A stretch of 8,098 bases of DNA from a virus (IMGVR_UViG_2531839474_000001:1-8098); one strand, 5' to 3'. Counted from the first letter of the stretch, positions 3,114 through 7,285 are shown. A program made the numbers and translations. The notes: generated by a model from the letters alone, not told the origin.

Positions 3114-3472
3114 ACGAATATCAGTTTGTGCTTCCATACCCGCCGTCGTTGAATACCTACTGGCGAAGACGGGGAAGCCAATACTACATCAGCGATAAAG
3201 GCCAGAAATACCGAAAAGACGTTCAGCAAATCATCCACCAACTCAAGTTAGATATTTTCACCAAATCACGACTCCGCATCAAAGTCATCGCAGACGTTCC
3301 AGACTCCCGCCGCCGCGACCTCGATAACATCCTGAAAGGTTTACTCGACTCCCTTATCCACGCCGGATTTGCGGAAGACGACGAGCAATTCGATGACATT
3401 CGCGTAATTCGTGGTGTGAAAGTACCAGGCGGAAGGCTTGGAATAAAAATCACCGAACTGGAGAACGCATGA
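3110..3472 (+). CDS. rusA: RusA Holliday-junction resolvase
   Basis: 120 aa; the motifs LPYPPSLNTYWRRRG, DVPDSRRRDLDNILKGLLDSL and GGRLGIKITELE match the RusA family (E. coli RusA: LPWPPSNNRYYRHNRG...PDRRRRDLDNLQKAAFDAL...GGRLELTITEM). Confidence 0.9.
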   Translation: MNEYQFVLPYPPSLNTYWRRRGSQYYISDKGQKYRKDVQQIIHQLKLDIFTKSRLRIKVIADVPDSRRRDLDNILKGLLDSLIHAGFAEDDEQFDDIRVIRGVKVPGGRLGIKITELENA

Positions 3473-3657
3473 ACGCCACAATTCAAACGATACCAGAGCT
3501 TCTTATCCATACACGAGGCAATCAGACCGAAGTGGCAAGGATGCTTTCCTGCGCAAGAGGAACAGTGCTCAAGTACAACCGAGACAGCAAAGGCGAGCGT
3601 CATGTAATAGTTAACGGCGTCCTGATGGTCAAACAGGGCAAGAGGGGAAGACGATGA
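3469..3657 (+). CDS. ninH: NinH
   Basis: 62 aa; TIPELLIHTRGNQTEVARMLSCARGTVLKYNRDSKGERHVIVNGVLMV matches lambda NinH (TIPDMLVEAYGNQTEVARRLKCSRGTVRKYVDDKDGKMHAIVNDVLMV). Start and stop both in ATGA overlaps. Confidence 0.85.
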   Translation: MNATIQTIPELLIHTRGNQTEVARMLSCARGTVLKYNRDSKGERHVIVNGVLMVKQGKRGRR

Positions 3658-4277
3658 GACTCGAAAGCGTAGCTAAATTTCATTCGCCAAAAAGCCCGAT
3701 GATGAGCGACTCACCACGGGCCACGGCTTCTGACTCTCTTTCCGGTACTGATGTGATGGCTGCTATGGGGATGGCACAATCACAGGCCGGATTCGGTATG
3801 GCTGCATTCTGCGGTAAGCATGAACTCAGCCAGAACGACAAACAAAAGGCTATCAACTATCTGATGCAATTTGCACACAAGGTATCGGGGAAATACCGTG
3901 GTGTGGCAAAGCTCGAAGGAAATACTAAGGCAAAGGTACTGCAAGTGCTCGCAACATTCGCTTATGCGGATTATTGCCGTAGTGCCGCTACGCCGGGCGC
4001 AAGATGCAGAGATTGCCACGGTACAGGCCGTGCGGTTGATATAGCCAAAACAGAGCAGTGGAGGATAGTTGCTGAGAAAGAGTGCGGAAGATGTAAAGGC
4101 GTCGGTTATTCAAGAATGCCAGCAAGCGCCGCATATCGCGCTGTGACGATGCTAATCCCAAACCTTACCCAACCCACCTGGTCACGCACTGTTAAGCCGC
4201 TGTATGACGCTCTGGTTGTGCAATGCCACAAGGAAGAGTCAATCGCAGACAACATTTTGAATGCGATCACACGTTAG
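3654..4277 (+). CDS. Q: late-gene antiterminator Q (lambda type)
   Basis: 207 aa, MRLESVAKFHSPKSPMMSDSPRATASDSLSGTDVMAAMGMAQSQAGFGMAAFCGKHELSQNDKQKAINYLMQFAHKVSGKYRGVAKLEGNTKAKVLQVLATFAYADYCRSAATPGARCRDCHGTGR..., essentially the lambda Q sequence as I recall it, including the Cys-rich zinc-binding region. Confidence 0.95.
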   Translation: MRLESVAKFHSPKSPMMSDSPRATASDSLSGTDVMAAMGMAQSQAGFGMAAFCGKHELSQNDKQKAINYLMQFAHKVSGKYRGVAKLEGNTKAKVLQVLATFAYADYCRSAATPGARCRDCHGTGRAVDIAKTEQWRIVAEKECGRCKGVGYSRMPASAAYRAVTMLIPNLTQPTWSRTVKPLYDALVVQCHKEESIADNILNAITR

Positions 4278-4319
4278 CGCCATGATTGCCACGGATGGCA
4301 ACATATTAACGGCATAATA

Positions 4320-4375
4320 TTGACTTTTTGAATAACTTTGGGGAAACTTGACACCAATAATGGGCGTTTTTTACA
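4320..4375 (+). promoter_or_regulatory. late promoter pR' with Q-utilisation (qut) region
   Basis: TTGACT (4320..4325), a 17-nt spacer TTTTGAATAACTTTGGG, then GAAACT (4343..4348). This is collinear with lambda pR' (TTGACT-TATTGAATAAAATTGGG-TAAATT-TGACTCAACGATGGG) and sits just downstream of Q. Similarity to lambda ends shortly after the expected transcription start. Confidence 0.6.
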
Positions 4376-4514
4376 TGTCATTGATGAGTCTCAATAACCT
4401 GCCGCCGAGTAGTTTTTATGCTCTGAATTGTATTTGTGTAGTAAACATGCTGACTGCAATGTAATAGAGTTTTTTTAGCCTGTAACCTCTTGACGGCATT
4501 GAATTGCTTTTGTT

Positions 4515-5225
4515 ATGAGTTGTAAGCCAATGTTATCATCTTGTATTGGGGTGGTTATGAAGGATGGTGCGCTGCTCAGGAGTTCTTCACTTTTTATTGC
4601 CTACATGGGATGCCTTGGATGGGGGAGTGCTTATTTCTATGGATGGGGTACTTCTTTTTACTACGGCTTCCCATGGTGGATTGTAGGTGCAGGTGTTGAT
4701 GATGTTGCCAGAAGTTTATTTTTTGCAGTTATCGTCATTGCTATATTTCTTATCGGTTGGGGTATTGGTGTTGTATTCTTTTTCGCAGTGAAAAGAAAAC
4801 ATTCTATGCAAGAGCTAAATGTATTTCGCCTTTATTTTGCTGTGGAATTATTGTTTGTGCCGGCAATTATTGAGTTTTCTATATTGAGACAGAAGATTCA
4901 GGTACCTCTTTTGCTACTGTCAGCAGCGATTGCGCTGGCGGTTACAATTTCGATAAGATCTTATGGGCGATTTTTATCGGTATCATGCTTCTATGATAAG
5001 CCATTTATAAAAAAACATTTTTTTGAGATTGTGATGATTGCTTTTGTGGCATATTTCTGGCTTTTTTCATTTCTGACAGGATATTACAAACCACAGTTTA
5101 AGAAAGAATATGAAATGATTAATTATAATGATGGTTGGTATTATGTTCTTGCTCATTATGATAATTGTCTGGTTTTGTCTACTTCTTTCAATGCAGGTAG
5201 TAAAAGGTTTGTCATTTATCAATAA
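4515..5225 (+). CDS. uncharacterised polytopic inner-membrane protein (cargo gene in the Q-S interval)
   Basis: Only long ORF in a clearly AT-rich stretch; 236 aa from ATG 4515 (alternative starts at 4530 and 4557, none with a strong SD). About five hydrophobic helices (e.g. SLFFAVIVIAIFLIGWGIGVVFFFAV, VPLLLLSAAIALAVTISI, FFEIVMIAFVAYFWLFSFLTG) and an aromatic-rich C-terminal tail. No recognisable family. Confidence 0.6.
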   Translation: MSCKPMLSSCIGVVMKDGALLRSSSLFIAYMGCLGWGSAYFYGWGTSFYYGFPWWIVGAGVDDVARSLFFAVIVIAIFLIGWGIGVVFFFAVKRKHSMQELNVFRLYFAVELLFVPAIIEFSILRQKIQVPLLLLSAAIALAVTISIRSYGRFLSVSCFYDKPFIKKHFFEIVMIAFVAYFWLFSFLTGYYKPQFKKEYEMINYNDGWYYVLAHYDNCLVLSTSFNAGSKRFVIYQ

Positions 5226-5406
5226 GCACAAGATAAGAATCTTCAGGTTGATATTGTAAGGACCAGAATTTAATTGGCTGCATAAATAATATTTTAAGTT
5301 GCAAGTTGGCTATTCGTAGGAATAGAACCTTAGGCATGCTGAATGCGTTTTCTGAACATTGTTTTATAAACTGTGTCTGCTTGCTGTTGTGATCCTGCTT
5401 TTAGTG

Positions 5407-5517
5407 ATGGTGATGATGGATTTCACCAGCAGGATAATGTTGGTACTGACTGATGGCGCTCTGGTCTGCGGCATTGTGGTATTGCTGTGGCCGATGATGA
5501 AAGAACAGAATGAATAA
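5407..5517 (+). CDS. possible small hydrophobic peptide (36 aa, MVMMDFTSRIMLVLTDGALVCGIVVLLWPMMKEQNE)
   Basis: Short ORF with one predicted transmembrane segment, lying antisense to a listed minus-strand ORF. No convincing SD; in-frame GTG/TTG alternatives lie upstream. Speculative. Confidence 0.2.
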   Translation: MVMMDFTSRIMLVLTDGALVCGIVVLLWPMMKEQNE

Positions 5518-5703
5518 TTCTTGACTTTTTTGTTTACTGTTTATTAAAAAATCAACCGCATGGTGAATCCTCCTTGGAGGGGCTAAATGATCGAGTTTTA
5601 AGGGCACGTAGCGAGTTCTGTTTGATCATTGCAGAACTTAGCGGGAGGCGCCATGCGTACATCACTAATGTTATTTCCTTCTATCATTTTCCTTGTGAGT
5701 TCT

Positions 5704-5730
5704 GGCTGCGCATGGCGCGGCCTTTTTTTT
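5704..5730 (+). terminator. rho-independent terminator (plus-strand orientation)
   Basis: GGCTGCGC (5704..5711), loop ATG, GCGCGGCC (5715..5722) forms an 8-bp GC-rich stem with one G-U pair, followed by a run of eight T (5723..5730). Confidence 0.6.
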
Positions 5731-5919
5731 ATGACCTGCCACTGGCAGATGGTCATCCTGTGATTTGATTCCGGTTCCGGCTTTTTAACTCTGTTCCTGT
5801 ACACGGGAGAAATTCTATGTCGATTAATCGTTATGATATTGGTTACAAGAAGTACCACGTATTGTGTTGAGATAGAAAGCATGGTGCCAGAGGTAAATGC
5901 AGCAGCATAATAAAAAAGA

Positions 5920-5959
5920 GCCAGCGCAGAAGAGAACGGGTAAAAGAGTCTGCGCTGGC
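5920..5959. repeat. perfect 11-bp inverted repeat (GCCAGCGCAGA / TCTGCGCTGGC) separated by 18 nt
   Basis: Arms at 5920..5930 and 5949..5959. A second small hairpin GGGG-ATATT-CCCC follows at 5962..5974. No T-run follows either, so it is not a canonical intrinsic terminator. Confidence 0.55.
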
Positions 5960-6075
5960 GTGGGGATATTCCCCGTGGAGAAATGATATGTAACACACAT
6001 CGGGAACCTTTCTATATAAACATTATCATTATTGTCAATCATAACAGTCAGGTATTATGACGTTTATGCATCAGG

Positions 6076-6104
6076 GCCATCAGGAATTAACTGGTGGCTT
6101 TTTA
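6076..6104 (+). terminator. rho-independent terminator about 35 nt upstream of the holin start
   Basis: GCCATCAG (6076..6083), loop GAATTAA, CTGGTGGC (6091..6098) forms an 8-bp stem with one G-U pair, followed by TTTTTATTG. Confidence 0.5.
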
Positions 6105-6138
6105 TTGTTGTCAGCTTCCGGATAACGGGAGACGGGGT

Positions 6139-6354
6139 ATGTACCAGATGGAAAAAATAACAACAGGTGTGTCATACACCACGTCAGCGGTGGGGACGGG
6201 ATACTGGCTACTGCAGTTGCTGGACAAAGTCTCTCCGTCCCAGTGGGTGGCAATAGGTGTGCTGGGAAGTCTGCTGTTTGGCCTGCTGACGTATCTGACA
6301 AATCTTTATTTCAAGATTAAAGAAGATAAGCGTAAGGCTGCGAGAGGTGAATAA
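6139..6354 (+). CDS. S: class II holin (phage 21 S-type pinholin) with dual-start motif
   Basis: From ATG 6139 the product [71 protein letters not shown] (71 aa) matches phage 21 S as recalled ([68 protein letters not shown]). A second in-frame ATG at 6148 gives the shorter form. Stop overlaps the endolysin ATG. Confidence 0.9.
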
Positions 6355-6851
6355 TGTCGCCGTCATTACGCAAGGCTGTTGCAGCTGCTATTGGTGGTGG
6401 GGCTGTTGCCATAGCGTCTGTGCTCATCACTGGTCCAGGTGGTAACGATGGTCTGGAAGGTGTCAGCTACATACCATACAAAGATATCGTTGGCGTATGG
6501 ACTGTATGTCACGGACACACCGGAAAAGACATCATGCCCGGTAAAACGTATACCGAAGCAGAATGCAAAGCCCTCCTGAATAAAGACCTTGCCACGGTCG
6601 CCAGACAAATTAACCCGTACATCAACGTCGATATACCGGAAACAACGCGCGGCGCTCTTTACTCGTTCGTTTACAACGTGGGCGCTGGCAATTTCAGAAC
6701 ATCGACGCTTCTTCGCAAAATAAACCAGGGCGATATCAAAGGCGCATGTGATCAGCTACGGCGCTGGACATACGCTGGCGGTAAGCAATGGAAAGGGCTG
6801 ATGACTCGCCGCGAGATTGAGCGTGAAGTCTGTTTGTGGGGGCAACAATGA
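6354..6851 (+). CDS. R: SAR endolysin (phage 21 R-type lysozyme with N-terminal signal-anchor-release domain)
   Basis: 165 aa; N-terminal Gly/Ala-rich weakly hydrophobic segment [20 protein letters not shown] followed by a lysozyme catalytic region ([25 protein letters not shown]). Near-identical to phage 21 R as I recall it. Confidence 0.95.
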
Positions 6852-7285
6852 GCAGGGTAACCGTTATTATCTCCGCTCTGGTTATCTGCATTATCGCCTG
6901 CCTGTCATGGGCTGTTAATCATTACCGTGATAACGCCATCGCCTACAAAGAGCAGCGCGATAAAGCCACATCCATCATCGCTGATATGCAGAAGCGGCAA
7001 CGTGATGTAGCAGAACTTGACGCCAGATACACAAAGGAGCTTGCTGATGCTAATGCGACTATCGAAAGTCTCCGTGCTGATGTTTCTGCTGGGCGTAAGC
7101 GCCTGCAAGTCTCCGCCACCTGTGCAAAGTCAACGACCGGAGCCAGCAGCATGGGCGATGGAGAAAGCCCAGGACTTACAGCAGATGCTGAACTCAATTA
7201 TTACCGTCTCCGAGGTGGAATCGACAAGATAACCGCGCAGGTTAACTACCTGCAGGAATACATCAGGACGCAGTGCTTAAAATAA
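6848..7285 (+). CDS. Rz: Rz i-spanin
   Basis: From ATG 6848, [39 protein letters not shown]...RLQVSATC...QCLK matches lambda Rz ([39 protein letters not shown]...). N-terminal transmembrane anchor plus coiled-coil periplasmic domain. ATGA overlap with the endolysin stop. Confidence 0.9.
7047..7232 (+). CDS. Rz1: Rz1 o-spanin (outer-membrane lipoprotein), embedded in the +1 frame of Rz
   Basis: AAGGAG (7034..7039) lies 7 nt upstream of ATG 7047. Product [36 protein letters not shown]... has a signal peptide, a lipobox-like VSAC and a Pro-rich mature part, as in lambda Rz1. The start could instead be 7017 or 7053. Confidence 0.75.

Follow-up and report, generated by a model that had tools for sequence, protein, structure and literature searches.

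A truncated TfpB-family inner-membrane protein gene carried as late-slot cargo in a lambda-like Escherichia coli prophage

The open reading frame considered here belongs to the TfpB family of polytopic inner-membrane proteins, is carried as cargo behind the late promoter of a lambda-like E. coli prophage, and is cut short by a nonsense mutation in the window, by which is meant the whole stretch of 8,098 nucleotides that was analysed. Family identity, truncation and cargo status can all be regarded as secure. As for the role of the gene, the best overall explanation is a lysogenic-conversion protein of the cell envelope, represented in the window by a copy that is probably inactive, and this explanation has roughly an even chance of being right. 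The gene is already catalogued (Pfam TfpB; PHROG 1521) and has annotated copies in phage 434 and hundreds of E. coli genomes; since a catalogued family is represented here by a rare damaged allele, the find is ordinary at the level of gene presence.

On the + strand an open frame spans 4515-5225, as the sequence-only reading had proposed, but neither of its ends is that of the family gene, whose start lies at 4557 and whose stop in the window, at 5223-5225, is a nonsense mutation. The features of the gene and of its damage are the following.

4515..4556, + strand: in-frame upstream extension, beginning at ATG 4515 in the sequence-only reading and at ATG 4530 in RefSeq, with no SD-like sequence before either ATG
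4557..5225, + strand: gene for a TfpB-family inner-membrane protein, truncated allele of 222 codons plus a premature TAA (PHROG 1521; homologue starts)
5154..5156, + strand: CAT (His) for a near-invariant Arg (R209) in the motif VLARYD, the second base difference from O26:H11 11368
5223..5225, + strand: premature stop TAA, where intact alleles have TCA (Ser), from the two-SNP comparison with O26:H11 11368
5226..5273, + strand: 16 codons of the intact-allele frame that are now untranslated (15 sense codons and the original TAA stop)

ATG 4557 is the start in nearly all full-length homologues, drawn from six enterobacterial genera, and an SD-like GGGGTGG is found at 4548-4554. The extension at 4515-4556 is absent from homologues of other genera, and comparison gave no support for a start at either 4515 or 4530; judged from the sequence, it is probably not translated. 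At the other end of the gene, the TAA removes the last 16 residues (SAQDKNLQVDIVRTRI), corresponding to the last beta strand of the C-terminal domain (strand 236-241 of the AlphaFold model), and the window allele stops just before this strand. The copy in O26:H11 strain 11368 differs from the window by two bases in 1814, one of which is the TCA to TAA change; the other, Arg to His at 5154..5156, was found only in the window among the loci compared, and is absent also from the two sister genomes with the same stop. Of the 682 complete E. coli genomes carrying the segment, 5 have the nonsense allele (perfect match to a 61-base probe centred on the changed base), and the truncated protein is found on 35 contigs, the intact forms on 918 to at least 1000. 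In a sister strain, SLK172, the same stop is accompanied by an additional frameshift, and the gene bears a pseudogene flag in RefSeq. Independent secondary damage of this kind is what would be expected in a small nonsense lineage once function had been lost. Because the last beta strand is missing and His replaces Arg at a near-invariant site, the window copy is probably inactive or weakened.

Membership of the family is supported by a PHROG 1521 match with an E-value of 9e-142, covering profile positions 1-206 of 222, and by the presence of PF27470 (TfpB) in 101 of 101 homologues from a large protein collection. The Pfam-A set that was scanned did not contain PF27470, and the assignment was made through a precomputed match on P0001, the representative of the 90% cluster that holds the window's 231-aa product; the window protein itself gave nothing usable in Pfam-A, NCBIfam or PADLOC scans. 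The sole weak match, to CrgA (E 0.62), was dismissed as noise, and ten distant family members likewise returned only noise from Pfam. The Moraxella "protein tfpB" (P0191) is matched by the profile at E 9e-62, and the window protein finds the M. bovis locus (L029) in tblastn at 1.4e-19. Intact members are about 238 aa long, and a length of 236-238 aa is kept across Escherichia, Citrobacter, Cronobacter, Klebsiella, Salmonella and Yersinia. Across the family, lengths of 236-261 aa go with a full C-terminal beta domain, and the window product, 16 residues short, is a truncated member.

When 1.84 billion cluster representatives were searched exhaustively with the profile, 72 relatives in total were returned, so the TfpB family is small. 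A scan of species-representative genomes and profile searching placed its members in Escherichia, Shigella, Salmonella, Citrobacter, Cronobacter, Klebsiella, Enterobacter and Yersinia among the enterobacteria, and beyond these in many Pasteurellaceae, Neisseria, Conchiformibius and Moraxella; all members found so far come from animal-associated Gammaproteobacteria and Neisseriaceae. The gene is carried by more than 600 complete E. coli genomes, frequently as two or three copies on different prophages of one genome. Values of dN/dS of 0.12-0.18 across prophage, plasmid and chromosomal copies indicate purifying selection on the family. Searches of the available literature on TciB, DUF3927 and Moraxella tfpB gave nothing relevant, and no demonstrated function was found there for the Moraxella gene or for that of the window; a "TfpB" described in Acinetobacter is an unrelated PilB-like ATPase.

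At the protein level, the earlier description of a strongly hydrophobic, aromatic-rich product with about five helices and a short tail was borne out by hydropathy, composition and two structural models, the tail proving to be beta-stranded. Trp, Tyr and Phe account for 21% of residues, and Kyte-Doolittle hydropathy reaches 1.8-2.8 in four 19-residue windows, with a Gly/aromatic-rich N-terminal helix in addition. Both AlphaFold (AF2) models consist of five long helices followed by a C-terminal part of five beta strands, about 55 residues in length, and both are of moderate confidence only (45 sequences and pLDDT 61 for the first; a more diverse 51-sequence alignment, pLDDT 73 and pTM 0.59 for the second). 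Loop charge counts over 51 aligned sequences fit the positive-inside rule for an N-in/C-out protein; the N terminus is accordingly predicted to be cytoplasmic, and an aromatic loop 1 and the C-terminal domain are predicted to be periplasmic. Conservation is highest at the end of helix 1 and in loop 1 (W-G-S-A-Y-x-Y-G-W-G...Y-Y-G-F-P-W-W...A-R-S-L). Every invariant or near-invariant position of the family motif S-S...A-Y...W-x-x-A-Y-x-Y-G-W-G...G-x-P-W-W...A-R-S-L is present in the window protein. No acidic residue, His or Cys is kept throughout the family, and distant members have lost the Asp pair seen in E. coli, which makes binding or scaffolding more likely than catalysis. Neither the conserved acidic motif in the first periplasmic loop nor the fold similarity that would mark a GT-C-type or other membrane-embedded envelope-modifying enzyme was found. 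The models matched no fold among the solved and viral predicted structures compared, and a profile search of PDB sequences gave no match at E up to 10.

The window comes from a lambda-like E. coli prophage and covers its late-regulatory region, in which genes for NinB, a Dam-like methylase, RusA and NinH are followed by Q, then by a low-GC interval of about 1.8 kb and the lysis cassette, with a Rha-like gene after Rz. The features that frame the TfpB gene are these.

3654..4277, + strand: late-gene antiterminator Q, lambda type (Pfam PF03589, E 3e-55; 97.6% identical to lambda Q)
4319..4364, + strand: lambda-type late promoter pR' with Q-loading and pause region (-35 TTGACT at 4319-4324; -10 GAAACT at 4342-4347)
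about 4396..5841, + strand: low-GC cargo cassette common to phage 434 (local alignment with 434 locus 3378-4826; GC profile)
4399..4420, + strand: decayed counterpart of the terminator annotated ahead of the gene in phage 434 (fold comparison with 434)
5359..5517, + strand: second cargo gene, for a 52-aa DUF3927 or "TciB-like" small membrane protein (Pfam PF13064, E 3e-14; PHROG 1470; TciB annotation in phage 434)
5704..5730, + strand: first strong intrinsic terminator 3' of pR', with an 8-bp GC-rich stem and eight T (-15.2 kcal/mol, z -2.8)
6074..6106, + strand: second terminator-like hairpin, directly 5' of the pinholin gene (-15.8 kcal/mol, z -3.2)
6139..6354, + strand: phage 21-type class II holin (pinholin), which starts the lysis cassette (Pfam PF04971 and RefSeq annotation)
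6354-6851: SAR endolysin (Pfam PF00959 and RefSeq annotation)
6836-7285: Rz (Pfam PF03245 and RefSeq annotation)

The GC profile falls to 31-40% over 4200-5600, compared with about 50% in the flanks. From 4413 to 5841 the window is 98.4% identical to phage 434 (blastn); lambda has other DNA at the cassette site. In 434 the antiterminator ahead of the cassette is a different one, of Q82 type; the cassette thus moves from one late-regulatory module to another. The TfpB gene is not the sole cargo gene, as had been supposed, for the Q-to-holin interval (4278-6138) also holds the DUF3927/TciB-like gene and further small ORFs. DUF3927 was considered as an obligatory partner of TfpB and rejected: it lies beside some of the closest alleles only, and is lacking next to two copies of 93-96% identity (L013 and L014) and next to all more distant homologues. 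No tRNA genes were found in the window, and its only Rfam match is an IS3 frameshift pseudoknot; an IS3-family element has inserted into this prophage.

By its position, the gene may be transcribed from the phage's own late promoter. The stretch 4281-4364 aligns with lambda 44513-44595, established in lambda as the pR' promoter and Q-loading region, and the same sequence is present in phage 2B8; the -10 of the window, GAAACT, is weaker than the TAAATT of lambda. The TfpB gene is the first gene 3' of this promoter. The sequence-only reading had seen nothing that linked the gene to the phage operon, which holds for translational coupling, of which there is none, but not for the position behind pR'. 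It had also proposed a -35 of the gene's own, TTGACG at 4490-4495. The hexamer is there; however, no usable -10 lies at 17-18 nt from it (TTATGA or TATGAG), the promoter scan does not list the site, and transcription from it would start at about 4526, 3' of 4515, so that such a promoter cannot serve ATG 4515. No convincing private promoter was found for the TfpB gene, the region containing 5 promoter-like matches versus 6.4 +/- 2.3 in shuffled sequences. The hairpin that lies upstream of the gene in 434 has a folding energy of -12.5 kcal/mol (z -3.8), whereas its equivalent in the window reaches -2.2 kcal/mol (z +0.2), no better than shuffles, and a fold of the 200-nt leader (4354-4560) gave no significant structure (z -0.4). 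With the upstream terminator decayed and the first strong terminator after pR' lying beyond both cargo genes, these genes, when intact, may be transcribed without Q in lysogens.

Phage 434 provides the closest comparison. Its CPT_434_68, annotated as a "putative membrane protein", is 99.5% identical to the window protein, lies directly after the antiterminator gene, as in the window, and belongs to the same cassette, including the TciB/DUF3927 gene. It differs in that the gene is intact (238/247 aa), the antiterminator is of Q82 type, the upstream terminator is intact and a NanS-p esterase gene follows downstream. The position directly after Q is shared by the window, O26, 434, 2B8 and Yersinia. 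A viable clear-plaque phage, 434B, lacks the gene, its entire Q-cassette-lysis segment having been replaced by DLP12 DNA, and the gene is therefore taken to be dispensable for lytic growth. The earlier view of a moron, a non-essential prophage gene for an uncharacterised polytopic membrane protein, thus stands: the gene appears dispensable, is variably present among otherwise syntenic phages and is deviant in base composition. Of the expression features of a moron, the terminator at 5704-5730 is present and a private promoter was not found. One homologue sits in a Q-methylase-tRNA-tRNA-[TfpB]-lpxR-pmrD-nanS-p scaffold, which is the layout of Stx phages with TfpB at the stx position. The amplification of late-slot cargo by pR' and Q is established for lambda and Stx phages. 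Shiga-toxin genes and other cargo of the Q-to-lysis slot share the slot with the window gene and the same expected logic, being placed 3' of pR' and amplified by Q on induction. Unlike Shiga toxin, the window product is an integral membrane protein and no secreted toxin, and the terminator between pR' and the cargo is decayed.

Outside lambdoid prophages, the family takes its name from the Moraxella TfpB of M. bovis and M. lacunata (PF27470), which is homologous to the window protein over nearly its full length at 25-29% identity and shares the layout of five helices and a C-terminal beta part and the motifs W-x-x-A-Y-x-Y-G-W-G, Y-P-W-W and A-R-S. In M. bovis the gene lies between two inverted pilin segments and in M. 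lacunata it adjoins piv, a site that is the classical pilin inversion region (tfpQ/tfpI). The Moraxella gene differs in being chromosomal, 261 aa long and inside a Piv-inverted pilin segment; that of the window is truncated, follows a phage late promoter and has no pilin gene near it. Elsewhere, homologues adjoin lpxR in Citrobacter rodentium, cdtABC in Glaesserella parasuis and an RTX operon in Mesocricetibacter; on ETEC plasmids a homologue is divergent from eltAB and close to estB, and another sits between iroBC and bor/iss. Copies in Mannheimia, Neisseria, Aggregatibacter and Pasteurella lie among housekeeping genes, and those in the chromosomes of Salmonella, Mannheimia and Neisseria are vertically stable and away from prophages. 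There is no constant partner gene across the neighbourhoods examined. Adjacency to virulence loci may reflect only shared insertion hot spots for foreign DNA.

The Salmonella homologue P0075 is STM1630, as its deletion primer encodes NSSMLLAYLGGLGWG, and the gene is of 717 bp and beside sseJ. STM1630 (SL1560) of S. enterica, the gene of a putative membrane protein, lies between steB and sseJ and resembles the window gene in encoding a 238-aa protein of the same Pfam family (48% identical) and in being a low-GC foreign gene bound by H-NS. It differs in being intact, chromosomally fixed and non-phage-borne, with its own mapped promoter and co-expression with SPI-2 genes. In the supplement of PMC6785131, STM1630 is given as a gene of unknown function that is bound by H-NS and expressed in SPI-2-inducing medium and in macrophages; the same supplement records attenuation of mutants in calves and chicks, and increased intramacrophage replication on deletion in strain 4/74. 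Hypermotility was observed in one screen (PMC4219756) but did not figure among the phenotypes that the follow-up (PMC4534456) pursued, and this lead was down-weighted for that reason. Altogether, the Salmonella phenotypes are modest.

In the explanation preferred here, lysogenic conversion of the envelope, the TfpB protein would act alone at the periplasmic face of the inner membrane, where it would more likely bind a component of the envelope than catalyse a reaction, and the benefit would go to the bacterial host in animals rather than to the lytic cycle of the phage. An intact gene, together with its DUF3927 neighbour, would be transcribed from pR' without Q in lysogens, and Q would boost this transcription after induction. 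The lean towards host fitness comes from the regulation and phenotypes of STM1630 and from retention of the gene beside eltAB/estB, cdtABC, the RTX operon, iroBC/iss and lpxR/pmrD. Taken by itself, the mechanistic reading is weak and should be considered doubtful. It could be carried further, to a single-gene device that spreads among the phages, plasmids and chromosomes of mucosal pathogens, with the aromatic loop and the beta domain remodelling pili, pseudopili or LPS-linked assemblies, and with toxin adjacency (stx slot, eltAB, cdtABC, RTX, sseJ) as a functional partnership, but this is a long shot. If such remodelling were true, host colonisation would be altered and the availability of phage receptors would change as a by-product; if the partnership were true, the protein would have a role, for example, in toxin delivery or release, and shared insertion hot spots would not be the reason for the adjacency. 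As a pointer, the gene marks a conserved accessory membrane protein at the lambdoid toxin slot that recurs beside genes for LT, CDT, RTX, an SPI-2 effector, salmochelin/iss and lipid A modification. A function in envelope remodelling or phage exclusion, if found, would explain a very common accessory gene of EHEC, ETEC and Salmonella.

Phage exclusion was the function favoured by the sequence-only reading, in the form of superinfection exclusion or abortive infection: an inner-membrane protein made in lysogens would block the entry of incoming phage DNA or kill infected cells. This appears unlikely, and the analysis yielded no positive evidence for it. Known exclusion proteins are prophage-borne, non-essential, polytopic membrane proteins, as TfpB is, two or three copies on different prophages often occur in one genome, and the decayed upstream terminator could permit expression in lysogens. 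However, no family of PADLOC-DB 2.0 was matched at E up to 1, and the recurrence in known defence islands that had been suggested as a check was not seen, no recognisable defence genes or islands being present in about 15 distinct homologue neighbourhoods. The stable copies outside prophages in Salmonella, Mannheimia and Neisseria and the co-regulation of the Salmonella copy with intracellular virulence genes also argue against exclusion. P22 SieA, T4 Imm and HK97 gp15 resemble TfpB in being small inner-membrane proteins of phages or prophages that are not needed for lytic growth, but no sequence, profile or fold similarity to these or other known exclusion proteins was detected, and the TfpB family is also stable outside phages. 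Quite unlikely, too, is an accessory role in type IV pili or pseudopilin systems, in which the protein would bind pilin-like proteins in the inner membrane and tune filament assembly. The idea draws on the homologue inside the invertible pilin segment of M. bovis and M. lacunata, which has the orientation of one of the two variable pilin segments, so that its expression would switch with pilin type; moreover, all taxa that carry the family are generally understood to have genes for type IV pili, competence pili or type II secretion. It is opposed by the lack of a nearby pilin gene in E. coli prophages and plasmids, Salmonella, Citrobacter, Mannheimia, Neisseria, Aggregatibacter and Glaesserella, and by the M. 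lacunata copies, which are themselves truncated (195 aa).

A late-gene accessory of lysis or virion release, such as a factor that regulates the holin or prepares the membrane and is expressed from pR' along with S-R-Rz, is very improbable. Although the gene lies between Q/pR' and the pinholin-SAR endolysin cassette, where strong transcription is expected after Q action, two strong terminators lie between it and the holin gene, Pfam gave no match to holins or antiholins, phage 434B forms plaques without it, and many homologues are found on chromosomes and plasmids, far from lysis genes. The proposal that the window copy is a pseudogene in progress, doing nothing whatever the role of the family, is of another kind, as it is compatible with the preferred explanation, and it has slightly better than an even chance of being correct. 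Decay relative to intact homologues, which the sequence-only reading had named as a finding that would count against it, is in part what was seen: the premature stop is rare, a near-invariant Arg has become His, the sister SLK172 has a frameshift and a pseudogene flag, and an IS3-family element has invaded the prophage. Against complete loss of function, 93% of the coding length and all five helices are kept, and a protein that lacks 16 of 238 residues may still function. The allele has also survived in at least five complete genomes and is found on 35 contigs, and this natural nonsense allele, only one or two bases from intact ones, offers a ready isogenic comparison.

In many lineages, TfpB-family genes directly adjoin toxin or virulence loci, and the neighbors differ among the homologue loci (L-numbers) compared with the window.

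Toxin and virulence loci beside TfpB-family genes
eltAB and estB: L041-L045, ETEC plasmids
cdtABC: L019, Glaesserella parasuis
RTX toxin operon: L018, Mesocricetibacter
sseJ: L004, Salmonella
iroBC with bor/iss: L047-L051
lpxR with pmrD: L052-L055

At two of these loci (L052 and L053), the TfpB gene is itself the cargo in the order Q-methylase-tRNA-tRNA-cargo-nanS-p, a layout of Shiga-toxin phages. In the window, the late region (3654-7285) is a mosaic of three phage types, in which Q and pR' of lambda type are combined with a cargo cassette of 434 type and a pinholin/SAR-endolysin lysis cassette of phage 21 type. Several small genes and gene calls are found within it.

Small genes and gene calls in the late region of the window
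5359-5517, plus strand: second cargo gene, encoding a DUF3927/PHROG 1470 'TciB-like' small membrane protein of 52 aa
5598-5996, minus strand: hypothetical protein of 132 aa, a RefSeq call
5629-5763, plus strand: small membrane or lipoprotein-like ORF, annotated in the phage 434 record
7017-7232: Rz1-like lipoprotein ORF, embedded in Rz

Among the homologue loci compared, the DUF3927 gene was confined to the neighborhoods of some of the closest TfpB alleles; it is missing beside the 93-96% identical copies at L013 and L014 and beside all more distant homologues. The RefSeq and phage 434 calls overlap on opposite strands, so that the annotations conflict, and neither is secure because a strong terminator (5704-5730) lies inside both. 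Upstream of the cassette, phage 434 carries an intrinsic terminator of -12.5 kcal/mol (L002, 3380-3405), the equivalent of which in prophages of the lambda-Q type (window 4399-4420) is mutated to a non-hairpin of -2.2 kcal/mol. In these prophages, loss of the hairpin may shift the effective tR' to 5704-5730.

In Moraxella lacunata NCTC10359, both tfpB copies (L032/L033, 6001-6561) read as truncated ORFs of 195 aa, whereas the M. bovis gene encodes 261 aa, so that the gene from which the family takes its name is apparently a pseudogene here as well. A 76-aa zinc-ribbon (UPF0547) gene comes directly after the TfpB gene in two Mannheimia species (L037/L038, 6744-6982) and could be a lineage-specific partner. 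A 3-kb contig labeled 'MAG: Veillonella sp.' (L015) carries an E. coli lambda-type Q and the TfpB cassette at 99.5% protein identity; almost certainly, it comes from an Escherichia prophage and was mis-binned. Beyond the nonsense mutation that both share, the sister strain SLK172 has a further frameshift (L056, 4536-5232; flagged as a pseudogene in RefSeq) and the window a further Arg-to-His change at 5155; these are independent second hits within the small nonsense lineage.
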